DNA from: a virus
Lineage: Duplodnaviria; Caudoviricetes
DNA length: 64,000 nt
Reading direction: 5' to 3' (one strand)
Virus record (IMG/VR): IMGVR_UViG_3300048691_000224
Made by a program: the position numbers and the translations under genes. Within the stretch, counting starts at the first letter, position 1. Every line of letters starts with the position of its first letter. Shown in pieces: positions 2,822-37,058 of the stretch. The notes beneath the pieces are model-generated. The model was not told where the DNA came from. It ran no database searches and saw only the letters and a list, made by a program, of their open reading frames with translations.

Positions 2822-4048
2822 TCATGTTGTTTTATAAAAATCTATAAAACTAACTAAACGCTTCAACGAAGATGCCTTTGGTATTTCTACCGAAGGTCTT
2901 AATTCCTCTCGACGTTTGTAATCGGTCAATTCTTCCGATGAAAACCCATAAAGATCGTCAAGACCTTTATTTAAAATATTAACCGCAGCGTTTAAGTCTC
3001 TATCATGATTTGTTCCACAAGAACTACAAACCCAATCTCTTATGTGTAAACCCATATCAGTTTCTTTATGACCGCAATTAGAACACGTCTTTGAAGATGG
3101 ATACCAACGATCAATTTTCTGAAAGGACCTACCATACCAGTTCGACTTATATGCAATCATAGAAACTAGAGTCGACCAAGAAGCGTCAGAAATTGACTTC
3201 GCTAATTTTCGATTCTTAACCATCCCTTTGATATTCAAATCTTCCATGCATATGGTGTCATAATTATTAACTAACCACGTGGATAAGTTTTGATAAACCC
3301 AGTTTCTTTGATTAGATAATTTAAGATAAGACCTTGCAACTTTTAATCGTTGCTTCTCATACCTAGAACTGCCATTCACCTTTCGACTTAAATGCTGCTG
3401 TTCTCGTTTTAGTTTAGATTGGTTTTCTCTAAACCATCTTGGATTTTCAATCTTCATACCATTACTCATGATGCAAAGATGTGTAAGGCCCAAGTCAATA
3501 CCGATTGAGCGACCGGTATTTTGTTTCAACTCTATAGTTTCTTCAACTAGAATTGAAGCAAAATATTGGTTTGCTTTATTTTTAGAAATTGTTACATTCT
3601 TTACAGCGCCGGAAAACTTCCTATCTATAGACATTTTGATTGGCGTCATCTTAGGAATTTTAATCCTTGAAGTCTCAAAATTTACTTGAGAATTTGAAAA
3701 TTTCTGACCCGGAATACGAAAAGAGTCTATAGAAACTCCACGTTTCTTAAACTTCATTCTGCCCAGTTTAGACTTACGAGTTTTGGAAAAGAATTGACTT
3801 TTAGTTTCTTCAAAATCCATACGTTTTTGTTGGAGTGCGTATGAAATCGAATCGTTTAACCAACTAAACTCAGGTGTATCTTTTAAGGTTTTCTCACTCA
3901 TGGGTCGGTTAGGCCCTTCTTTTGAGAATGAGTTGAAGTTTGCAACTAACTGGTTCCACACAAAACGCACAGAACCGAAGACTTCAGAAAGATACTTTTC
4001 TTGAGTCTTAGTTGGATAAATTCTGTACTTATACGATTTTAGTTGCAT
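2822..4048 (-). mobile_element. tnpB: IS200/IS605-family TnpB RNA-guided endonuclease, no adjacent tnpA
   Basis: N-terminal YKYRIYPT HTH; RuvC motifs IGIDLG, MEDL and DRDLNAA with all three acidic residues present; CSNCG/CSSCG zinc ribbon. Confidence 0.92.
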
Positions 4049-12607: not shown

Positions 12608-13960
12608 TTAGTTATCCAATACCCATCTTGGAATATTTGCATCTAATTCAGGGCGACGTACGCACAACTGCTTAATAAATTCTACTTGGTCTTCTTTACC
12701 AGCTGTATCACGTGGAACCTCGAGTGCCCATGTCATCATGCGCTCCCAAGCTTCACTCTCTTGGCTAGTTAGTGCAGCGTGACCATACAATGATTTGTTA
12801 CTCAGAGACTCCAGCGCGCGTCTCCAATGTACGAAGCACTGTTCTAGTGCAGCTTTAGACATTGTTGGGAGTGCTAAGAATGCTGGATACCTGAGGTAAT
12901 TAAAGCTAAGATTTATTTTATGAATATCATCACTCACATAGGCTGCACGCTGCTCAACTACCCTAGTAGCAAGGTGATGGAGTGTTTTAAGACTAAACAC
13001 ATTGACGGTTGTCATGTATGCTAGTCGGATATTGGGGCACTGGTCAAGTAGTAATTCAACATTCCGCCAAAAACGATCGACGTCCATACCATCTCTGACG
13101 AATTCTTGTTCTGGACCATCACCCTCAATTGAGGTAAAAATAGTGATCCGAGCGACTTTGTTGTCGAGGCTATTAAGTTTGGATATTAACCGTGTGATCA
13201 ATTCATCTGGTACACATAAGTTTGTATTAATCGCAAAATCTAACGTTGGTTGGGGCGATGTAATCAGATCCTCGATCAACTTCCATGTATTTTTACTGAG
13301 TAGAGGTTCGCCTCCTGTGATTCTAAAGTGAGTCAGCTTTTGTTTAAGTTCTGGCCACCAATTCCAAAATGCATCGACATATGGGTTCACTTCTTTGGAT
13401 TGGTACGGCATTTTATCTGTAGACTTGAGATATTCAATATCATTGAATGTTGTGTGTGGTAATTTGTATGGTCCATGACGCTGGGAATCTTCCATCCACC
13501 TGGAACTCACATCAGGAGAACAATACAGACACCGAAAGTTACAAGTATTATCAAAATTCACCTCAATGTATGATGGGAAGAACTCCGAACCTTGGCCCGA
13601 TTGAATCACTTCTTCAAAACGTGGGTATGACCACGATGTCCTACTTTTAAATGTTCGATCACTGTCGTGATCACCCGTCGTCAAATTTTCAATTTTCCAG
13701 CAATATTCACACTCAGGAGTCTGAATTCCATTAAGCATATCTTGCCGAGCTTTTTGCTTGTGTGTAGTATTATGCAAGGCAGACAAGTTTGTTTCTAATT
13801 CACTCAGTGGTATTTTGTGAGTAGCCGGGTGATGACACGAGTGGGTATGTCCAGTATTCAAGTGAATCGTTCCCTGTGTCCATTTCGCCAGGCACATTGT
13901 CGGACTGACTTCACTCAATTCGTCGCGAATTTGTTTGATTGGAATAATTTTAAAGTTCAT
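12608..13960 (-). CDS. Radical SAM protein with N-terminal twitch/SPASM-like Cys/His domain
   Basis: CNFRCLYC (CxxxCxxC) and TGGEPLL; N-terminal CLAKW..HSCHHP..CEYCW. Likely start MNFK at 13960. Confidence 0.88.
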   Translation of the reverse strand: MNFKIIPIKQIRDELSEVSPTMCLAKWTQGTIHLNTGHTHSCHHPATHKIPLSELETNLSALHNTTHKQKARQDMLNGIQTPECEYCWKIENLTTGDHDSDRTFKSRTSWSYPRFEEVIQSGQGSEFFPSYIEVNFDNTCNFRCLYCSPDVSSRWMEDSQRHGPYKLPHTTFNDIEYLKSTDKMPYQSKEVNPYVDAFWNWWPELKQKLTHFRITGGEPLLSKNTWKLIEDLITSPQPTLDFAINTNLCVPDELITRLISKLNSLDNKVARITIFTSIEGDGPEQEFVRDGMDVDRFWRNVELLLDQCPNIRLAYMTTVNVFSLKTLHHLATRVVEQRAAYVSDDIHKINLSFNYLRYPAFLALPTMSKAALEQCFVHWRRALESLSNKSLYGHAALTSQESEAWERMMTWALEVPRDTAGKEDQVEFIKQLCVRRPELDANIPRWVLDN

Positions 13961-13993
13961 GTGTATACGGATATAACTGGTGATGGTTAAGAG

Positions 13994-14025
13994 ACAGTGA
14001 AGAGCACTCGAGTGCTCTTCACTGT
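13994..14025. repeat. Perfect 32-bp palindrome
   Basis: ACAGTGAAGAGCACTC|GAGTGCTCTTCACTGT, read directly. Confidence 0.95.
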
Positions 14026-14103
14026 AACCATTGGGTTTACACCATGGCGCTAATGAACTACACGGCGTTGCGAATTGTAACAATATTACTGTGTGAGATA
14101 CTG

Positions 14104-15228
14104 TTAAGGAACAGTGTTTGTCCGCCCGACAGTGACTGTAATCTTGTATGTGATTGTCCACACTCGATCCATACTCTTTAGCAGTGGGTGAAAAATGATG
14201 TGAGACAATAACCGCTCACGTTCACTACTCGGGTTAGATGGGCTATTGGCAATACCTTGAGCCTGTCCTGGCAACGCGTTAGCAATATTGGTAAATCCTG
14301 TCAGATTCGAGAATAACCAGTTTGTTGGGTATGGTAGAGGTGGGATAACAATAGAGACTGTTGAAGTGCTTCCGGCGGTGATTGATACGAACCGCAGTGC
14401 ACCGTAAGTCACTACACCTGGTTCACTTACTTGAGAATTGCAGCCAGCAGTCGCAGTAGCCAGTGCTGAATTCAAAAGCGTGTTCAGATCCTCATATGTA
14501 ATTGCCCCACCAACTCCTGAACCAGCGGTTGGGGTTGTGAGAGAGATATTCTTTGTTATTCCATCGACAGTGATGTCAAATATGTACACTGTATTAGGCA
14601 CCAATCCAGTCAGCGAATCAAATGCCTTTGTCCCAACCAAAACGTCTTGGTACCCCTGTGTTGCAATTCTAGGCAAACCAGCAGAGAACAAACCAATTTC
14701 ATCAAATACAAAATCTGTACGATCGGAGGTTGGGGATAGTGAACTCTGAACTTGTCCGACAGGCTCAAACCTATTGAGTACGCAGGTCACTATGACTTGA
14801 GATTTCAGCGTTGGCAATTCAATGCTGTGGACTCCCGTTGGTGCAATTGCAGCGTCACCACCTGGTACTGCTCCTGGACCAGTTCCTAGTAAAGGATTTG
14901 ATTCCTCGACGACTTCAGAATACACTTCGTAGTGGAGTCTGGATTCCCAGTTAGAGGGATCGGGCAGTGCGCCATCATTTACAGTTCGGAATGATACTGT
15001 ACCAGTTGCGTCGACGAATGTTCCACCACTACCAAATCCAATTCTGTAAATTCCAGCATTAGGTTCATTTGCAAGTGCTCGAGCAATAATTCTACTCATA
15101 TTTTGTGGATGAATAGCATTCGTTTTCTCGAGAATTGTGTTTCCGAGGTCGTCCGTGATGGCAACTTCACCAATCATGCCTAATTTGACATCAATTGTCG
15201 GATCTTTTTGTATAATTTCGTGGGTCAT
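14104..15228 (-). CDS. Putative virion structural (baseplate/tail) protein
   Basis: Gly/Thr/Pro-rich beta-type composition, FDEIGLF motif, TAAATA late promoter upstream near 15257. Confidence 0.5.
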   Translation of the reverse strand: MTHEIIQKDPTIDVKLGMIGEVAITDDLGNTILEKTNAIHPQNMSRIIARALANEPNAGIYRIGFGSGGTFVDATGTVSFRTVNDGALPDPSNWESRLHYEVYSEVVEESNPLLGTGPGAVPGGDAAIAPTGVHSIELPTLKSQVIVTCVLNRFEPVGQVQSSLSPTSDRTDFVFDEIGLFSAGLPRIATQGYQDVLVGTKAFDSLTGLVPNTVYIFDITVDGITKNISLTTPTAGSGVGGAITYEDLNTLLNSALATATAGCNSQVSEPGVVTYGALRFVSITAGSTSTVSIVIPPLPYPTNWLFSNLTGFTNIANALPGQAQGIANSPSNPSSERERLLSHIIFHPLLKSMDRVWTITYKITVTVGRTNTVP

Positions 15229-26548: not shown

Positions 26549-27607
26549 TCAGAGTACTACAGAAAGTCCAAGCAACCCGACTGCAATTACCGCCAATACC
26601 GAGTTCACACCTGGAATCAACATCAAGATTATGAGAGTGGGTAGGTGCCAGTCGAGCCAATTACCAAACATCGGAACATTTTCTTCTTCCACGAGAACTT
26701 CCACTCCATCAACTTGAGTACTTTGGAGTCGGTTACCAAACCGATCGACTCTCGCACTCAGTAATCGTTCTTTATTGTAGGCTTCGAACATAATGAATCC
26801 GAGAGCCCCACAGAGTAACATGCTGACTACATACAATAAACCACTTGCCATATAATTCTCCAGTTAAAATAATTTAGTGTCCAAGAAATTTCTCTTGTGG
26901 GAATCACGGTCTCTCGATGATCGATTGAATATATTATCGATGGAGACGAGGATAACCCACACACTGGTACCAAATACAATCATCACAGGAATTATCATGT
27001 TGACCCCGGGAATGAGCGAGGTGACAATTGTGACTAATAGTGTCCCGATTGTGACAGCTCTGAAGTGCAATTTGATCGCAATTACCATCACAACGAAGCA
27101 AATTGCAATAGACGTGAGATATAACTGAGTTTCCATATTAAGGGGTCTCCGGTGTGGTTTTAGAGGGTGATGAAACGGACTTCATTAGCTCTTCGAGCAT
27201 TCTACGCTGGGATTCGAGTGTAGAGATTCGATCACTAAGTTTTTGAACTGCCGTCATGAGGCGAGGTTCCAAAAGTGAATTCTGTGGGTCTTGTTCTGTC
27301 ATGTGTGCGTTTAGTCCATACAATAATCAATGAATCGGCCGGCTAAGTTCCGCGCGCACGCATACCCAAGAGCGTCGATTAGGATAGCCATGTCGCTACC
27401 AGGATGAATATCTGCATGGTTAATATTTAAATTAGCGAGGTTCACAAGTTTGGATGCATGATATAACACCAACTCAGCATCAGCGTGTGGATGTTCCCTA
27501 TAGGCGTCATATGAGATCAAAATATCTGCAACCTCAGCCTTTGTTCGGATGGAGTTTACGTAATCTGTCACATAACGAGTCAGAGATAGCATTTTGTAGG
27601 TTCTCAA
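26549..27607 (-). other. Four small ORFs, two predicted membrane proteins (26549-26851, 26864-27136, 27138-27323, 27311-27607)
   Basis: ORF track; hydrophobic stretches; early promoter at about 27625-27657. Confidence 0.6.
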
Positions 27608-27675
27608 ATAAGTTGTGGTATAGATCCAATTGTACTCAAATAAACACGAAAGGTCAACACATCACACATACACCA

Positions 27676-27683
27676 CATAAATA
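27676..27683 (+). promoter_or_regulatory. T4-type late promoter (CATAAATA) for the N-half of the split ATPase
   Basis: Matches (T/C)ATAAATA 14 nt upstream of the ATG; followed by an ATAGTG/CACTAT hairpin covering the start codon. Confidence 0.7.
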
Positions 27684-27696
27684 GTGCATCTACACT

Positions 27697-28689
27697 ATGA
27701 GAACATTTATGAACTTCCTGAAATACTTATCTGAAGGCATCCGAACTGCAGATTTTGCGCGTTCTATTCAACTTATCAAGCAATATCTTGAAAAATCAAC
27801 AGGCACCCTATATGCACTCCCTGAGATGGAGCACTACAAAGGCGCCGCCGGCACCGGAATTGGCTTGAGATATTTTACCGAATCAGGTAAGAGTGTTCGG
27901 TTCAACTGGACTCGCAGTGACTCAGCGTCTGTACTCGAATCCATATCTGTTTGGGATGGCTCTACCAAGCACCCCAACTTTCAGATCACAGCTATTGATG
28001 GAGCACCACTCGGGACACTATCACTGGCAACCATTCTCCCTACACTCAGTGCTGTGATCGTATCACCAAGAGTTGGTGTGGTTGAATTGTCGACTGAAGA
28101 GTCGCGTGCTCAAATCGCACTAGATGTAAAAGTACTCCGCGAATCAGAAAGTGTTTACTATGTGAATACACTATCGAAGTCCCCTGTAATATTAACTGAG
28201 GATGCGTATAGTGACGTTATTGATGCACTGAGTGCTGGTCCTGTGTCTAAGTTCAACATTTCCAAGATGGGCCGCAACCAAGAACGAATTTTCGGTGAGA
28301 TTACTCAGAAGTACAAAGATGCGTTTGATATTAAGACAGATGGTGCTGGTAGGCAGAGATTTACACTAATCGGCTCTAGTGCCGACTTTGATCGCGATGA
28401 AATTGTACAAAGTGTTCTAGATTCGGCACCCAAGAAAGGAAGAGCAGCTTTGGAGGTTCGGAGTGGTGGTGATGAATCAACGAGTACTGATTCAGAAGAT
28501 CGTGCAGCACGTGCTTACCCTGAGGCCACACAGAGTCGTATTCCTTATGAAGAGCAATTAGATGATATGAAAACCATCATCACGGCGGTAGCAAAGGGCG
28601 CAAGTAACTTCGCGATTGTATTGGGCGCTGGGGGGTTGGGAAAATGTTTGGACCCTAATTCGGAATTGGCTGGGGTATTTGGCGAGTAA
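27697..28689 (+). CDS. AAA ATPase N-extein (316 aa) fused to a 14-aa split-intein N-fragment
   Basis: Ends ...GAGGLGK-CLDPNSELAGVFGE*. Walker A is cut after Lys; intein block A (CL..) begins at 28645. Confidence 0.88.
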   Translation: MRTFMNFLKYLSEGIRTADFARSIQLIKQYLEKSTGTLYALPEMEHYKGAAGTGIGLRYFTESGKSVRFNWTRSDSASVLESISVWDGSTKHPNFQITAIDGAPLGTLSLATILPTLSAVIVSPRVGVVELSTEESRAQIALDVKVLRESESVYYVNTLSKSPVILTEDAYSDVIDALSAGPVSKFNISKMGRNQERIFGEITQKYKDAFDIKTDGAGRQRFTLIGSSADFDRDEIVQSVLDSAPKKGRAALEVRSGGDESTSTDSEDRAARAYPEATQSRIPYEEQLDDMKTIITAVAKGASNFAIVLGAGGLGKCLDPNSELAGVFGE

Positions 28690-28755
28690 CTCCTCAAATA
28701 TCACTACCCCTTCCTGATCCACCAGGTCCGAGTAGCACACAACTATGGAATGTTG

Positions 28756-28787
28756 TATAAATATAGGGTTAGCAATCAACCCTATAT
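28756..28787 (+). promoter_or_regulatory. Late promoter overlapping a 10-bp hairpin upstream of the homing endonuclease
   Basis: TATAAATA at 28756-28763; ATATAGGGTT/AACCCTATAT stem at 28761-28787. Confidence 0.75.
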
Positions 28788-28792
28788 TTTAT

Positions 28793-30052
28793 ATGACAAC
28801 AATAACCAAAGTAACCCGTGTAGCAAACACACCCAACACTATTATCGAACTTTCCACTCCCGACGAAGTACTAGAATATTGTTTCATTCGAGAACTTTTG
28901 TATCGACACGAATGGAGGGGCTGGTTTCCTGAAACTCTACACAACGTGCAAGTGTTCTTGGATACAACTCCAACAATATCCCAAACTAAGGGGGATCTTG
29001 CATTGAGGTTTGGGGTAATTAACCCCAACAAAACAGCAAAACCCAACAATGTAGAACACTGGATTCGCCGAGGATGGAGCGAAGATGATGCAAAGCACTA
29101 CATATCTGAGCAACAAAAATCTCGCAATGCTATTAAGCAACTGGAACTAAATTTAGATCACTGGATTGGATTAGGACATTCTATAGAAGAAGCGCGTGTG
29201 TTGGTTGATGATAAGCGGTATGGATTTACAGCAAGGCGCCCAGAGTATTGGGTAAAGCGAGGATACTCATACGAAGAGGCAGTTGAACAAGTCACGGCAC
29301 ATCAGGGAGCACATTCTCCTAAAACTATTGGATATTGGGAACAGCAAGGTTGCTCTCGAGAGCAGGCCACGAAGGAGGTTCAAAAAGTTCAACAACATGC
29401 AGCAGACGGCGCCAAAGCGGCTTGGAAGGCAGGACTGATTGATAAAAGTACACGCAACACAAACTTACAATATTGGGTCAACAAGTGCAATGGCAATGTT
29501 GAACAAGCGGAAGTTTTATTGTCTAATAGACAACGAACCTTTTCACTGGACATCTGCATCGAAAAGTATGGGGAAGTCGACGGGTTGATTAGGTTCAAGG
29601 AACGTCAAGCACTATGGCACAAAAACTTTAAGAAACAAAATTATAGTAAGATATCACAGGTGCTGTTTGATGGGGTTTGCCAAATGCTGCCTGATACGAT
29701 CAAGGAATTACCGATATATTATGCAACCAGGGTAATTGGTAACGATACAGATATCAAGAATAACGAATTTACTCTAGAACTCCAAGAAACATTTTGTAAG
29801 CCTGATTTCTATATTCCAGATTTGGAATTAATCATTGAGTTTGATGGGCAATATTACCATCGGACTGACGATTACACATATTACACAGCTGATAAAAAGC
29901 GTAGGGATGACAAAATATTAGAAATGTATCCTAACATGTTAATCAGTCATATTACAGAGACGGAGTTTAATGCGGATGCGATGGCGGTTATTAAGCGTGT
30001 TGTTGATACAATTCAAACCCGTCACAAAGCTTTTAGTACTCAGTTCCAGTGA
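28793..30052 (+). CDS. Free-standing Vsr-like (PD-(D/E)XK) homing endonuclease with W..RG.S.EEA repeats
   Basis: C-terminal KPDFYIPDLELIIEFDGQYYH; repeated helical motifs; lies between the split-intein halves. Likely start at 28793. Confidence 0.8.
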   Translation: MTTITKVTRVANTPNTIIELSTPDEVLEYCFIRELLYRHEWRGWFPETLHNVQVFLDTTPTISQTKGDLALRFGVINPNKTAKPNNVEHWIRRGWSEDDAKHYISEQQKSRNAIKQLELNLDHWIGLGHSIEEARVLVDDKRYGFTARRPEYWVKRGYSYEEAVEQVTAHQGAHSPKTIGYWEQQGCSREQATKEVQKVQQHAADGAKAAWKAGLIDKSTRNTNLQYWVNKCNGNVEQAEVLLSNRQRTFSLDICIEKYGEVDGLIRFKERQALWHKNFKKQNYSKISQVLFDGVCQMLPDTIKELPIYYATRVIGNDTDIKNNEFTLELQETFCKPDFYIPDLELIIEFDGQYYHRTDDYTYYTADKKRRDDKILEMYPNMLISHITETEFNADAMAVIKRVVDTIQTRHKAFSTQFQ

Positions 30053-30054
30053 AC

Positions 30055-30083
30055 AAAAAAAAAGCGCCTCAGGCGCTTTTTTT
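30055..30083. terminator. Bidirectional intrinsic terminator
   Basis: A9-GCGCC-TCA-GGCGC-T7 between convergent genes. Confidence 0.85.
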
Positions 30084-30107
30084 ATAACACTCTGTGATTT
30101 ATTTAAA

Positions 30108-30710
30108 TCAGAGCTTACCGTTTGGTGTAAATGTCCCCGTCATCGCACCGTGAACATATTCCAGATACTGTTCACCATCTCTCGTTACAGGATTCCCTTC
30201 CAGACCTGGTATGGAGCCAACCTTGGCAATCATTCCAGCTTCACAAACCTTACCCACGACAGTGTTACCGATAATCTGGCCAGTGATTGATACACCTGCG
30301 GGTGATGCCATTCCGATTTTACCGTCAGGCATCACGCCACCCGTAACCGGAAAGTGTTCATCACTAAACACTGTGATCCAAGATTTATCTGTCTTCTGCC
30401 CATTTGCATCGATTTCAAATGCATAGTGTCCACTCAACCAAATTCCGCCGTCAGGTGAACCTCCGCCAAGCACAGCATTATCAATTGAGTCGTCTCCTGT
30501 CACAGTGTGCCCGTGATTAACGAGACTTGTGTTGCGTGCAGCAATGCGAGCTTCGTGTGAAGGCATCGTGAATGACCCCACAAGTGTTCCTGGATAATAT
30601 TTAACGGGCTCGGGAGCGGCGGGGGTTTGAACTTTAGGGCTGAAGTAGCCTAATTTGTACCCACGATATCCCAAGTACCCTAATACGATGAATAAGAATG
30701 CGAAAAACAT
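30108..30710 (-). CDS. Membrane-anchored Gly-rich beta protein (paralog of 30723-31271)
   Basis: N-terminal hydrophobic segment; GGIWLSGHYAFEID and GAMTGTF. Confidence 0.6.
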   Translation of the reverse strand: MFFAFLFIVLGYLGYRGYKLGYFSPKVQTPAAPEPVKYYPGTLVGSFTMPSHEARIAARNTSLVNHGHTVTGDDSIDNAVLGGGSPDGGIWLSGHYAFEIDANGQKTDKSWITVFSDEHFPVTGGVMPDGKIGMASPAGVSITGQIIGNTVVGKVCEAGMIAKVGSIPGLEGNPVTRDGEQYLEYVHGAMTGTFTPNGKL

Positions 30711-30722
30711 ATTAAAATTCCT

Positions 30723-31271
30723 TTAGTTAATGATGGCTTCGTCACACGGAGGGCGGAGCTCACCTGTCATATTACCTGCAATCAGTTGGTGTGCTCCACA
30801 GGCTACACCTGTTAATTTACCATACTTGATTATACCCTCACACGATAACCCATACGATCCATACGCCAGATGGAATGTTCCGTCATAATTAACCTTGCCG
30901 CTGATTATGGTTTCCTTGCGGGTGGTGTGTTGTGTTTTTACCCAACCAGATGTAATTGCTCCAGTGTGGTCGATTGTGAAGCTGAACTCACCAATCAAGA
31001 ATACACCTCCGTGCTCCCCCGCGAGACCTGTTGCTGTATTATCAGTGACGTTGCTAATTTTTGGAAATGATGGAACGTAGAGGCGCTCACCAAGGTATGC
31101 GTCCCTCAGCGATAACAGATAGTACTCATCACTACTTGGTGGACATATCGTACCTTCGACGACTCCTTGGTGGGGGTTAGTATACTGTGGGATGTGGGTA
31201 GGCTCTGGTGGTTGGTTACCTACCCAGAGTGCAGACCAAATACGGCGGGCGATGGAAATAATTGAATTCAT
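30723..31271 (-). CDS. Gly-rich beta protein (paralog of 30108-30710)
   Basis: GGVFLIGEFSFTID and GNMTGEL. Confidence 0.6.
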   Translation of the reverse strand: MNSIISIARRIWSALWVGNQPPEPTHIPQYTNPHQGVVEGTICPPSSDEYYLLSLRDAYLGERLYVPSFPKISNVTDNTATGLAGEHGGVFLIGEFSFTIDHTGAITSGWVKTQHTTRKETIISGKVNYDGTFHLAYGSYGLSCEGIIKYGKLTGVACGAHQLIAGNMTGELRPPCDEAIIN

Positions 31272-31317
31272 GAGGAGGGATTTTTAATGGCTTCTTATTT
31301 AGTAAGCACTGCTGTGG

Positions 31318-31325
31318 TATAAATA
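31318..31325 (+). promoter_or_regulatory. T4-type late promoter for the C-half of the split ATPase
   Basis: TATAAATA 23 nt upstream of the ATG at 31348. Confidence 0.75.
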
Positions 31326-31347
31326 GTGATTTACAGCAGGTACACTT

Positions 31348-32418
31348 ATGCACAATCTCGAAATTCGTTCCTTCCTTCAATTGGCGGAACACGTAAAACA
31401 AAATTTATCAATTGATGAATTAGAATTAAACAAACTATATGACACTCGAGAATTCGATTGGTTGATTCGCGATCAAGAGAATTGCCTAATTCCTGTGATT
31501 GGTCTGATTCGCAAGCAAGCCAAATTAATTGAATTTGAATTTTCTACCGGTGAGACTGTAGTGTGTGCAGATCATCACATGTTTGCTACTAATGCACGGA
31601 ATGATGTCATCGTCGCAAGTGAAATGAAGGTTGGTGATCTATTAGCCAAGACATCTGGTGACATCGCCGTGGTAGTTTCTAAAATTTCCACAGGTGTTGT
31701 TAGTGATGTCTATGATATCCAAGTGCAATCTGAGAAGATGTTGTATAGCGACGCCGCAGGTTTTGTTCACCACAATACTCACACTGTTGAGGAAACTCTT
31801 CAAAATCTAGGCTTATCAGACGGCGATGGTTATTTTAAGAACACTTCATCAGGATCTGCTGCTGGTCTATACAAGACACTCTTTATGAATCGTACTGGAA
31901 TTGTGGTTCTTGATGATTGTGACACGATCGTATCTACCCAAGAAGGTCGCAACTTACTGAAAGCTGCACTGGATACTAAGAAGAAGCGTAAATTAGTTTG
32001 GGCGAAGGCTGCGTCGTGGTTGTTCGATCCAGCTGACGAAGCCCTCATGGGTGATGCACTGGATGCTGTTGATTCTGGAATGGAGCCTGAGAAGTTTCCA
32101 CGATATTTCGACTTCGAGGGTCGTGTAATATTGATCAGTAACTTATCACCTGACGTGCTCGATCCCGATGGTGCACTCGCCACACGAGGATTTATCATAA
32201 CACTAGACCCCACAAAGGCTGAGGTGTTTGCATTCATGCGTAAGATTGCTCCCAACATTCCAATCGAGGGTACTCTCACACTCGAAGAGCGAATGGCAGT
32301 AGTCGACTTGATAGAGAAACAGACAGGTGCTGTTAATATCAGAAAATTGGTACGCGGGATGAACCTGGCGGCTTCGGGGGTTCCAAATTGGGCTCGATTG
32401 GTTGAGCGCTACTGCTAA
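31348..32418 (+). CDS. Split-intein C-fragment (143 aa) fused to AAA ATPase C-extein
   Basis: Hint block B VVCADHH, block F VYDIQV, block G FVHHN|T (Thr at 31777). Extein THTVEETL...IVVLDDCD (Walker B)...LISN. Confidence 0.9.
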   Translation: MHNLEIRSFLQLAEHVKQNLSIDELELNKLYDTREFDWLIRDQENCLIPVIGLIRKQAKLIEFEFSTGETVVCADHHMFATNARNDVIVASEMKVGDLLAKTSGDIAVVVSKISTGVVSDVYDIQVQSEKMLYSDAAGFVHHNTHTVEETLQNLGLSDGDGYFKNTSSGSAAGLYKTLFMNRTGIVVLDDCDTIVSTQEGRNLLKAALDTKKKRKLVWAKAASWLFDPADEALMGDALDAVDSGMEPEKFPRYFDFEGRVILISNLSPDVLDPDGALATRGFIITLDPTKAEVFAFMRKIAPNIPIEGTLTLEERMAVVDLIEKQTGAVNIRKLVRGMNLAASGVPNWARLVERYC

Positions 32419-32562
32419 AAGCTAAAGTGTTTATTGAGCGGGGAACTACACTAAGGTTAACCCTGCTCTATTCTATTGCACATATCATAATTACAATACC
32501 ACCATTATAAATAGTACACATATGTGCACTGAAATGAAAATTAGTATGAAAGATACCACCAA

Positions 32563-33087
32563 ATGAAATTATATGGTTATACCCGAGCAACAGCGTTACC
32601 TACCTCTCCTGATGTGGGTCAGATTGTATTTTTATCAGTCGATGGTTTGACAGGGACACTACAACACTGGGACGGTAGTGCCTGGGTGCTCGTTGGTGGT
32701 ACTCCACAATTATTGAGTATTGTTGGTGATCAATTGACATTATCTGGCGGAGGTGGGTCTGTTACACTGCCAACGTTCTCATGGCGTGAAGTCGTGAATA
32801 GTACAATTGTTGCCCCTATGGACGTCGCAAATGGAATTGCTGTGAGCAATTCCAGCGCCACTACAGTCACGATACCTCTCAATTCTGCTGTACCAATTGC
32901 AGTAGGATCATCTGTGTTGGTAGCTGCTGATGATGTTGGTACAGTGACACTGGTACCGGCTAGTGGTGTTACGCTACACGTCGGAAATGGTCTGTCCACT
33001 ACTCTGTTGGGACAGTACTCTGTAGTAACACTTATCAAGCGATCACCTGATGTTTGGTATGCGGCTGGAGACTTCGCTACACCATGA
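32563..33087 (+). CDS. Putative tail fibre-associated protein
   Basis: Late promoter TATAAATA at about 32506; beta-rich; VTLIKRSPDVWYAAGD C-terminus typical of fibre domains. Confidence 0.55.
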   Translation: MKLYGYTRATALPTSPDVGQIVFLSVDGLTGTLQHWDGSAWVLVGGTPQLLSIVGDQLTLSGGGGSVTLPTFSWREVVNSTIVAPMDVANGIAVSNSSATTVTIPLNSAVPIAVGSSVLVAADDVGTVTLVPASGVTLHVGNGLSTTLLGQYSVVTLIKRSPDVWYAAGDFATP

Positions 33088-33518
33088 AGACTTCTCTCCA
33101 TGGAATCTTAGCCGATAGGCGAGAACTCACAGTAAGTGAATTCTTCACCAGTTCACTCTATGGATTTGAGATTAGTGATACTGCGTCTATAGGGCTACCT
33201 GGAGTGATATCTGGAAGTCTACCACCTTATGGGCTGGCTGAAGACACAGGTAGTATTGGACTACCATCTATCGCATCAGGATCACTGGTTGATCTAATTA
33301 TCAATACAAATATTGAAGACACAGGTAGTATTGGACTACCATCTATCGCATCAGGATCACTGGTTGATCTAATTATCAATACAAATATTGAAGACACAGG
33401 TAGTATTGGACTACCATCTATCGCATCAGGATCACTGGTTGATCTAATTATCAATACAAATATTGAAGACACAGGTAGTATTGGACTACCATCTATTATT
33501 TCTGGAACATTAATTTAA
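33084..33518 (+). CDS. Tail-associated protein with 25-aa tandem repeats
   Basis: Likely start MKTSLHGIL overlapping the upstream stop; EDTGSIGLPSIASGSLVDLIINTNI x3.4. Confidence 0.65.
   Translation: MKTSLHGILADRRELTVSEFFTSSLYGFEISDTASIGLPGVISGSLPPYGLAEDTGSIGLPSIASGSLVDLIINTNIEDTGSIGLPSIASGSLVDLIINTNIEDTGSIGLPSIASGSLVDLIINTNIEDTGSIGLPSIISGTLI
33240..33496 (+). repeat. Perfect 75-bp tandem repeat, about 3.4 copies, in frame
   Basis: Unit starts at 33240, 33315, 33390 and 33465. Confidence 0.95.
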
Positions 33519-35033: not shown

Positions 35034-37058
35034 ATGAAAACATCCCTTGCTGGTATTTTGAACAGACGTAGAGTAGTTTCGGGTGTAGTGAATAATCTAT
35101 TATTTGGACTTGGAGCTAACTGGTTTAACAATATATCAACATCCAACACTCAATTTTATACCACTCCGTACCAAGTTGATAATTCAGAGTGGATTTCAGT
35201 TAGCAATGGTATACATTCAGCCTACGGAGTTAGATCTGACGGGACGCTATGGGCTTGGGGACAGAATTCAGGTGATGATTTTTTAGCAGTAGGCAACATC
35301 AATCCTACTCACCCACTACAAGTCGGTTCAGATACTGATTGGGCGAAAGTGGTTGGCTCTCAGTATGGTGCTTACGCCATCAAACAAGATGGGGCGCTGT
35401 ATGCGTGGGGAGAGGATTCGCAAGTACTAGGTTTCGGCAATACACAAATCAATGTAATGACTCCGTCACTCCTACCAGGAACCTGGTCGCATATCGCCGC
35501 AGCACAAGTTGTCACACTAGGTATCAAAACAGACAATACCCTGTGGGCTTGGGGATCTGATTCGTATGGAGTGTTAGGGACAGGTGTAGAAGATGTTGGA
35601 TTGTGGTCCCCAACACAGGTAGGGACCTCCACATGGAATACCGTCGACATGGTTAAAGATATGAGTATCGGGATTCAGTCAGATGGAACCATGTGGTCGT
35701 GGGGTAGGTGGAATAATGGTGCAACTGGGAATGGTGGTACTACTGACATCACGGAATCACTACCAGTCCACATTGGTGTTGGGTATACGTGGTCACGTGT
35801 AGCTTGTGGAATCCAACACAAGCTGGCTATTAGATCTGACGGAACCCTGTGGTCGTGGGGGTCAGGTGATTTGGGAGTACTAGGGTTGGGAGACCTCATC
35901 AATCGATATGAACCAACCCAAGTGGGTACAGACTCTGATTGGGTCTTTATTAAAGCAGGGTGGTACTTCTCTAGTGCACTAAAGGCTGATGGGTCGCTGT
36001 GGGTTTGGGGCGAAAATGTTCAAGTTATGTCCGATGGTTCAGATTATGCTGCGGTCTTAATACCAACTAAGATATCAAAAGGACCATACAAATTTATATC
36101 TCACAGTATATCGATTGAACCTGAGACATTTTTGCTTACAGGGACTAACACACTGCCGGTAGCAATTGCGTTCAATGCAATTGCTACTTTTTCGTTGGGT
36201 TACGATATTAGCAATTACACAACCATTGAGTTCAACGGATTATTCAATGTGGTGCAGACCACTGTTGTTAACATAACCGCCAATGTTGCAGAACTGAATT
36301 TTTTAAACTCTAATGCGATAACTTATGGTAGTGGGTCTGGTGCGCCATTAGTTGAGTTAACACTAACTGAAGCTCAGGTTACCCAACCATCAGCTTTTAA
36401 TGGTATTCCTACGCTACAGAAGTTCACGTGCAATACAATGTCTACAATCGCAGCGAGCACCTTTCAACAGTGTGCCAGCTTACAGACAGTCATTCTTCCA
36501 GCAGTGAGTACAATTGGCACTCAAGCATTTGTTGGTTGTACGGCATTAGATCTAGATCTTAGTGATTTTTCATCGTGCGTTGTCATCGAGGCTCAAGCAT
36601 TTAGTGGATGCACTGCACTCACACCACACATCACCACCCAACACTTTCCAAGTTTAACTCATCTCGGTAAAGGTGTGTTTAGTGCATCTAGTGTAGGTAG
36701 AATTGAGTTGCCTACAGTGACGAGTGTTGACACCGATGGGCCAATATTCACTTCTGTTGGGCACATCCAGCTCAACGGACTTAGCTCAATACAAGGAACC
36801 TCTTTTGTGTACTGCACATCTTATATACTGGAGTTTGCGGGCTGTGTGAGTGTTGGGGATTATGCATTTGCAAACTGGAGTCCTGTCGGTGCTGCATTGT
36901 CGTGGTTATATCTACCGGTCGTAACCACTTGGGGCAATGATGTATTTCATGGAGTCTCCGGATTGTCAGTTACTCTCACTATCCGCACAGATCAACAGAG
37001 TAATCCAAATGTATTATATCTTCAGGCGAATAATGATGTTACCTTGGTGTTAGTGTGA
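35034..37058 (+). CDS. RCC1/BLIP-II beta-propeller repeats fused to BspA-type leucine-rich repeats; candidate receptor-binding protein
   Basis: About six (S/Q)DG(T/A)LW(A/S)WG repeats, then LP(A/S)V..IG..AF..C..L repeats. Confidence 0.85.
   Translation: MKTSLAGILNRRRVVSGVVNNLLFGLGANWFNNISTSNTQFYTTPYQVDNSEWISVSNGIHSAYGVRSDGTLWAWGQNSGDDFLAVGNINPTHPLQVGSDTDWAKVVGSQYGAYAIKQDGALYAWGEDSQVLGFGNTQINVMTPSLLPGTWSHIAAAQVVTLGIKTDNTLWAWGSDSYGVLGTGVEDVGLWSPTQVGTSTWNTVDMVKDMSIGIQSDGTMWSWGRWNNGATGNGGTTDITESLPVHIGVGYTWSRVACGIQHKLAIRSDGTLWSWGSGDLGVLGLGDLINRYEPTQVGTDSDWVFIKAGWYFSSALKADGSLWVWGENVQVMSDGSDYAAVLIPTKISKGPYKFISHSISIEPETFLLTGTNTLPVAIAFNAIATFSLGYDISNYTTIEFNGLFNVVQTTVVNITANVAELNFLNSNAITYGSGSGAPLVELTLTEAQVTQPSAFNGIPTLQKFTCNTMSTIAASTFQQCASLQTVILPAVSTIGTQAFVGCTALDLDLSDFSSCVVIEAQAFSGCTALTPHITTQHFPSLTHLGKGVFSASSVGRIELPTVTSVDTDGPIFTSVGHIQLNGLSSIQGTSFVYCTSYILEFAGCVSVGDYAFANWSPVGAALSWLYLPVVTTWGNDVFHGVSGLSVTLTIRTDQQSNPNVLYLQANNDVTLVLV

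Follow-up and report, generated by a model that had tools for sequence, protein, structure and literature searches.

How a phage might make an intact P-loop ATPase from a gene that lies in two pieces, broken inside the Walker A motif, is the question raised by a locus in IMG/VR virus record IMGVR_UViG_3300048691_000224 (Duplodnaviria; Caudoviricetes). The whole stretch of DNA that was analysed, 64,000 nucleotides long, is called the window here. Two open reading frames (ORFs) on its plus strand, gene 1 (27697-28689) and gene 2 (31348-32418), carry the ATPase sequence and two pieces of an intein between them. We consider it highly likely that they are a fractured ATPase gene with a naturally and atypically split intein that works by trans-splicing, and that a homing-endonuclease cassette broke an ancestral contiguous mini-intein.

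Translation of gene 1 (330 amino acids, aa) gave a 316-aa N-extein (27697-28644, plus strand; assigned by ortholog alignment) whose last residues, GAGGLGK, form the beginning of Walker A. Next come the 14-aa intein N-fragment (IntN) CLDPNSELAGVFGE (28645-28686) and a TAA stop codon (to 28689); this fragment represents block A and strands beta1-beta2, and was recognised by its invariant Cys1 and by alignment with contiguous inteins. Gene 2 (356 aa) starts 2658 bp downstream of the gene 1 stop codon. It opens with a 143-aa intein C-fragment (IntC; 31348-31776, plus strand) containing VVCADHHMF, VYDIQV and FVHHN, in which beta3, a helix, block B (CADH, His77), block F (YD) and block G (HHN) were assigned by AF2 modelling, Foldseek comparison and conservation. 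The 213-aa C-extein and its stop codon (31777-32418, plus strand; ortholog alignment) begin with THTVEETL, the Thr+1 of which completes Walker A. The joined exteins amount to 529 residues (316 + 213), with Walker A GAGGLGKT and Walker B VVLDDCD. An initial annotation, made from the DNA sequence, had described the 14-aa tail after GAGGLGK, the 143-aa Hint remainder with CADH, VYDIQV and HHN ahead of THTVEETL, and the gap of 2.66 kb; each of these was found to be exact.

Sequence comparison shows, well past what chance would allow, that gene 1 and gene 2 are one gene in two pieces. A search of a 5.8-billion-protein collection retrieved 12 uninterrupted proteins (503-513 aa) that match both halves. 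Gene 1 is 48-58% identical to them over 92-98% of its length (E 4e-109 to 7e-80), its N-extein aligning with residues 1 to about 300, and the last 213 residues of gene 2 are 74-80% identical to the same 12 proteins (E about 1e-100). Six orthologs in the alignment read GAGGLGK-THTVEETL (or -SHQVEETL, -THSVEKTL) unbroken. The uninterrupted orthologs carry GAGGLGKTHTVEETL straight through, which means that the insertion is in frame at a conserved site and that intein-free hosts exist; in each of the split N-halves the similarity stops right after the Lys, and a tail beginning with Cys takes over. The restoration of GAGGLGKT by joining the exteins, as initially proposed, thus agrees with the junction read in the orthologs, and the uninterrupted proteins that had been suggested as a check do exist. 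The same arrangement recurs on independent contigs from different samples and is therefore not an assembly artefact. Other loci with the same two-ORF split include nine with the N-half read (L001-L005, L007, L008 and L010, plus the proteins P0122-P0126); L001 and L002 are close split loci with the same junction, and L003-L005, L007, L008 and L010 are more distant.

The sequence and predicted fold of the inserted domain point to a class-1 intein, for which splicing would be the expected activity. AF2 modelling of the 143-residue IntC by using an alignment of 34 homologs gave a mean predicted local distance difference test (pLDDT) value of 92.3, and the 50 top-ranked Foldseek matches in the PDB were without exception inteins or bacterial intein-like (BIL) domains (gp41-1, RadA, Cat, VidaL and others). 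A contiguous relative, the P0129 intein, was modelled as a HINT fold with a pLDDT of 93.9; its top Foldseek match in the PDB was the VidaL intein 6VGV (E 1e-9, template modelling (TM) score 0.86, 22% identity). Intein relatives surfaced only by structure comparison: phmmer searches of gene 2 and of the endonuclease encoded in the gap against PDB sequences returned nothing meaningful. A Pfam scan of gene 1, the endonuclease and the two cargo genes of the gap gave nothing at E 0.1 or better.

Cys1 (Cys317 of gene 1, directly after GLGK) is invariant in nine aligned N-halves. K56, His77 (block B), Asp123 (block F), His142, Asn143 and Thr+1 (Thr144) show no variation across 34 intein C-parts, whose identity to that of the window is only 21-57%. 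Invariance of the catalytic residues at this level of identity argues for purifying selection on the splicing machinery, a pattern that mere association or decay of the pieces would not be expected to produce. It might be supposed that the intein pieces associate without splicing, and that the ATPase is a non-covalent two-chain complex or that the halves have separate roles. HINT fragments alone would bring the halves together, although the P-loop would be rebuilt only by ligation: the unligated Walker A (GK/T; here and below a slash marks a splice junction) stays interrupted by a domain of 157 residues. Moreover, association needs none of Cys1, the block B His, the penultimate His, the terminal Asn and Thr+1, all of which are invariant in the nine N-halves and 34 C-parts. 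We regard association without splicing as unlikely, and trans-splicing of the window intein as very probable.

The position of the break was located by comparison with contiguous inteins of 147-150 aa in the same ATPase, which were found by a HMMER scan of 1.84 billion representatives (P0129, P0138, P0142 and P0145). The split pieces align end to end with these inteins, the 14-aa IntN corresponding to their first 14 residues, and the window IntC and the P0129 intein share 29% identity (E 5e-12). In AF2 model numbering, the P0129 intein has Cys1 at residue 6, strands at 12-17 and 20-25, and a helix at 26-37. The window 14-mer equals model residues 6-19 and IntC begins at the second strand; the break is therefore placed in the 18-19 hairpin turn, after beta2 and before the helix. 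By this model the break coincides with the S1 position of atypically split inteins, a site that is defined in PMC13014065 and used by VidaL and PolB16. The description of the element as an atypically split Cys1/Thr+1 intein was borne out, with Cys1 and Thr+1 invariant and the break at S1.

The N-fragments of atypically split inteins found in nature measure 15-37 aa (PMC13014065, 2026); the 15-aa fragment of PolB16 has been called the shortest characterised (PMC10189870, 2023), and the IntN of VidaL has 16 aa (sequence in the Supporting Information (SI) of PMC10264447). The IntN has 14 aa in the window, 12 aa in L001 and in L005, 13 aa in L004, 14 aa in L008 and 15 aa in L010. Other relatives have 16-20 aa, and L007 and L003 have 30 and 32 aa, their tails running into the endonuclease ORF. 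As predicted from the ORFs, the window IntN would be one residue under the shortest published natural example and those of its relatives up to three; the initial impression that it is as short as, or shorter than, the known fragments was correct.

The halves have their own promoter-like signals. A near-consensus T4-type late promoter box, CATAAATA (27676-27683, plus strand; 7/8 match), lies 13 nt 5' of the gene 1 ATG, and the late promoter box TATAAATA (31318-31325, plus strand) lies 22 nt 5' of the gene 2 ATG. ATAAATA occurs only nine times in the window, counted on both strands (128 kb of sequence). Seven of the nine sites fall 13-49 nt 5' of the start of an ORF of at least 174 aa, and four cluster in this region (27677, 28757, 31319 and 32507). 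Both halves are probably expressed separately, each from a late promoter, a prediction that follows from consensus and position. The initial claim of one late promoter per half stands for the boxes themselves, less firmly for that of gene 1 with its incomplete match, and their use as promoters is likewise a prediction. A leader pattern, ATAAATAGTG...TACACT(T)ATG, is common to gene 1 and gene 2.

Between the halves lies, as the first feature, the gene for a free-standing homing endonuclease. Within its ORF (28745-30052) the ATG at 28793 is the preferred start, which gives 419 aa (28793-30052, plus strand); a copy of TATAAATA (28756-28763) is then inside the longer frame. Folding revealed an RNA hairpin at 28751-28798 (plus strand; dG -19.6, z -4.8; 0/200 shuffles equally stable), the 5' arm of which contains this TATAAATA and the 3' arm the endonuclease ATG. 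The hairpin with its embedded late promoter is predicted to be an I-TevI-style translational switch. The translation of the endonuclease gene shows five repeats of the xW(I/V)xxG(W/Y/H)SxEEA type and a C-terminal Vsr/DUF559-like core, IIEFDGQYYH. The assignment draws on these repeats, the core motif and homology to ORFs of two relatives: the protein is 42% identical to the ORF in the same place in L002 and 28% identical to the L010 endonuclease (BLASTP E 5e-22), the latter alignment running through the (I/V)EFDG-Y-H core. The L010 endonuclease passes Pfam DUF559 (PF04480) with 34.6 bits (cut-off 20.6). No direct match to Pfam DUF559 was found for the window endonuclease, which gave only weak MTES_1575 (E 0.04) and PvuRts1I-like matches, so its Vsr-like/DUF559 membership is one of transitive homology; it also matches the PHROG "HNH/homing endonuclease" (4e-5). 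A further endonuclease-like gene with the same xW..G.S.EEA repeats (L009:3-1157, minus strand) lies upstream of a C-half on the opposite strand.

Downstream of the endonuclease gene a bidirectional intrinsic terminator (30057-30083; dG -22.8, z -5.3) separates it from two convergent minus-strand genes. It has a 12-bp stem with A-U pairs and a GCGCC core, flanked by an A-run and a T-run. A simple terminator scan missed this hairpin, which was spotted by eye and then folded; a terminator between the halves, as initially annotated, is thereby supported. The two minus-strand genes, termed cargo genes, encode 200 aa with a hydrophobic N-terminus (cargo gene 1, 30108-30710) and 182 aa (cargo gene 2, 30723-31271). 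They are weak paralogues of each other (E 3e-5), and both are kept in the same place in L001 (72% and 47% identity, respectively).

These features bear on whether the halves might instead be linked as RNA, through a group I or group II intron or RNA trans-splicing, to give one chain with a contiguous intein or with none. Group I introns that contain endonuclease genes are indeed present in T4-like phages. However, a permissive Rfam scan of 27000-33000 found no intron and no family at E <0.1, with three small RNA (sRNA)/small nucleolar RNA (snoRNA) matches at chance level. In addition, the gap holds the bidirectional terminator and the two conserved opposite-strand genes, the position of the gene 1 stop codon is conserved among relatives with different gaps, and the ATG of gene 2 sits where contiguous inteins continue. 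RNA splicing of the halves, which the initial annotation had raised as the competing outcome, is extremely improbable.

Among the relatives, the contents of the gap vary. L002 and L010 have a homologous endonuclease only, L007 a 419-aa ORF in which the nuclease core motif is not evident, and L001 the two minus-strand cargo genes and no endonuclease; L004 and L005 have only a spacer of 12-51 bp, and L008 retains a 55-aa C-terminal nuclease remnant (L008:3841-4008). Such variety is what the life cycle of a homing-endonuclease cassette would be expected to leave behind, and the gap also serves as a landing pad. One could read the same facts as decay, with an ATPase gene destroyed by insertion of endonuclease or cargo and the ORFs left as remnants: unrelated cargo sits in the gap, L001 has lost or lacks the endonuclease, and only a remnant of it is seen in L008. 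Such a pseudogene is hard to reconcile with ORFs of 330 and 356 codons that are intact here and in many divergent relatives, with exteins still 48-80% identical to intact orthologs, with the invariant catalytic residues of the intein, or with a start codon and a promoter-like box for each half. Decay was judged very unlikely. Besides the split ATPase, the UvsX gene of L004 also looks fractured (L004:875-3433): ORFs for RecA_N (346 aa), an I-TevI-like endonuclease (294 aa) and T4_UVSX_C (193 aa) follow one another just upstream of a DnaB-like helicase gene and the split ATPase.

For the trans-splicing intein, the following course is proposed. A contiguous mini-intein would have resided in the P-loop of a T4-like phage ATPase of ~510 aa until a homing-endonuclease cassette broke it in the turn after beta2 (S1). 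The 14-residue tail of gene 1 would now dock as beta1-beta2 onto the 143-residue HINT remainder that heads gene 2. Splicing would begin with an N-S acyl shift at Cys1, followed by transesterification to the hydroxyl of Thr+1, cyclisation of Asn143 and finally an O-N shift. The intein pieces would thereby be released, and the ATPase would be left as a 529-aa chain in which the GAGGLGKT of Walker A is whole. Mobility would be driven by the Vsr/DUF559-type endonuclease, probably silent on read-through transcripts through its start-codon hairpin and expressed from the hairpin's own late promoter, and the two opposite-strand genes would have lodged in the gap as cargo.

Several points weigh against this interpretation. 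Splicing is predicted here from sequence and modelled fold, and a 14-residue fragment may bind weakly. Neutral in this respect is a complex prediction for IntC (residues 1-165) and the last 35 residues of gene 1: the pair scored 0.44, and one unrelated-peptide control scored 0.64. The Pfam Intein_splicing model matched the window intein weakly (E 9e-4, under the gathering score), Thr+1 is a less common nucleophile, and in block B the usual Thr is replaced by Cys or Ser. Finally, gene 1 has a 7/8 promoter box and no obvious Shine-Dalgarno sequence.

The window intein belongs to a larger family with two insertion points in the P-loop. Among the proteins fetched, which were grouped into clusters at 50% identity, site b (GK/C...HHN/T-x-x-V, the window junction) was represented by 25 split clusters, and site a (GG/C...HHN/TGKT), three residues upstream, by 23 split and four contiguous clusters. 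At least 48 such clusters of the same ATPase thus carry a split intein at the P-loop. Site a is found in L003-L005 and L010, and site b in the window, L001, L002, L007 and L008. The site had initially been thought uncommon; comparison of these sequences indicates that the P-loop of the ATPase is an intein hot spot, and VidaL too has a P-loop-like junction (ESG/SGK), so this view fails.

Inteins of site a and site b are specific homologs of each other (29-34% identity, E 5e-12 to 4e-15). The two site states interleave in the maximum-likelihood tree that was built from 52 intein sequences; well-supported branches force at least two site switches, and the best tree needs four, figures to be read with caution given a short alignment (142 columns) and some long branches. 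A single switch was rejected by the approximately unbiased (AU) test against one site-b clade (p 0.0007). It is tentatively proposed, as plausible rather than likely, that S1-split inteins have radiated widely in nature within the ATPase, with natural N-fragments shorter than any seen so far (12-14 aa), and that this one lineage has moved more than once between GG/TGKT and GK/T. If so, a mechanism would exist that shifts the splice junction by three codons on both halves at once, and the intein scaffold would tolerate different local exteins.

A different, large intein was seen at the window junction in two intact-length orthologs, P0128 (773 aa) and P0159 (834 aa), which read GLGK/ALPN...HN/TH with Ala1, not Cys1. 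It presumably carries an endonuclease domain, and could be of class 2/3 type or inactive.

The host protein had initially been named an AAA ATPase. Walker A and Walker B are present, but the Pfam AAA models score below threshold on the intact orthologs (AAA_16, 22-28 bits, cut-off 32.6; AAA, 16.5 bits, cut-off 21.2). The C-extein matches PHROG 1250 and, distantly, T4 NrdC.10 (33% identity over about 100 residues). From these matches, NrdC.10-like P-loop nucleoside triphosphatase (NTPase) is the best name: the host protein appears to be a P-loop NTPase distantly related to T4 NrdC.10, which is the safer designation. A literature search linking NrdC.10 with an intein returned nothing.

Placed by its neighbouring genes, the window comes from a T4-like phage of at least 221 kb. 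Its neighbours include T4 Rnl1 and a DnaB/gp41-like helicase, those of the relatives rIIB, gp15 and a neck protein, and the longest contig carrying the ATPase protein has 221,103 bp. Megablast of the locus against GenBank phages gave no match, nor did tblastn of the N-half against phages. Elsewhere in the window, a 408-aa ORF (2822-4048, minus strand) has the full TnpB/IS605 OrfB architecture (HTH_OrfB_IS605, OrfB_IS605 and a Cas12f1-like TNB domain), i.e., a transposon-associated RNA-guided nuclease gene within a phage genome. The early/middle region of the phage has a gene for a radical SAM protein of 517 aa (12608-14161, minus strand). Downstream of gene 2, an ORF at 33054-33518 (plus strand) has a tandem array in which a 25-residue unit (GSIGLPSIASGSLVDLIINTNIEDT) occurs, nearly unchanged, three or more times. 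A 674-aa protein with RCC1 repeats and BspA-type leucine-rich repeats (35034-37058, plus strand) may be a tail-fibre or host-recognition protein; LRR_5 proteins lie nearby in L001 relatives as well.

Very short N-fragments are sought by protein chemists, since a peptide of 12-14 residues can readily be made synthetically together with its cargo and has little effect on the protein being tagged. To our knowledge, only VidaL pairs a short fragment with fast kinetics. The dozens of divergent natural Cys1/Thr+1 S1-split pairs (12-20 aa fragments) and their contiguous homologs would provide material for consensus design and for orthogonal pairs. The locus further adds an NrdC.10-like ATPase to the intein hosts, offers a fractured gene whose gap became a landing pad for unrelated cargo genes, and is a clean case for the study of insertion-point drift within the P-loop.

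Among known systems, VidaL, described by Burton et al. 2020 as cited in PMC13014065 (PDB 6VGV), shares the Cys1 class-1 type, the natural split just after beta2 (S1), an IntC that opens with a helix, contains block B and ends in xHN, and the P-loop-like native junction (SI of PMC10264447). It differs in its IntN (16 aa, compared with 14 aa in the window and 12-13 aa in relatives) and in its +1 residue, which is Ser instead of Thr; its host protein is presumably another one as well. VidaL ranked only 18th in the Foldseek search with the window IntC, among many inteins with similar scores, and the two IntC sequences were compared by eye only. Cat (PDB 6DSL), the engineered consensus in the AceL-TerL and GOS-TerL group, gave a good match to the window IntC (E 2e-5, TM score 0.76). 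PolB16 OarG also has an S1 split, a very short and synthesisable N-fragment and a metagenomic origin (PMC10189870). It is, however, cysteine-less (Ser1), its host is a PolB polymerase and it can do without the block B His, whereas in the window intein the first residue is Cys and the block B His is invariant; the structural match of PolB16 (8CPN/8CPO) to the contiguous relative was weaker (E 1e-5).

The fractured loci of Dassa et al. 2009 (PMC2677866) resemble the present locus in having two ORFs per enzyme with intein pieces, a free-standing Vsr-like or GIY-YIG endonuclease between them, an upstream hairpin, and a phage or metagenomic setting. Nearly all of these break at the canonical endonuclease-insertion point with an IntN of ~100 aa, whereas the window intein breaks after 14 residues, and the gap adds two opposite-strand cargo genes and a terminator. 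The NrdC.10-like ATPase is outside the eight host types in that study. AceL-TerL and GOS-TerL are likewise split near the N-terminus and lie in T4-like phage genes, but they break after helix alpha1 (S2) with an IntN of 25-37 aa (PMC13014065), and the window intein breaks one element earlier, before the helix. The kind is thus already known, and the window intein and its relatives constitute a sizeable new family of naturally S1-split inteins in a fractured gene with a Vsr-like endonuclease.

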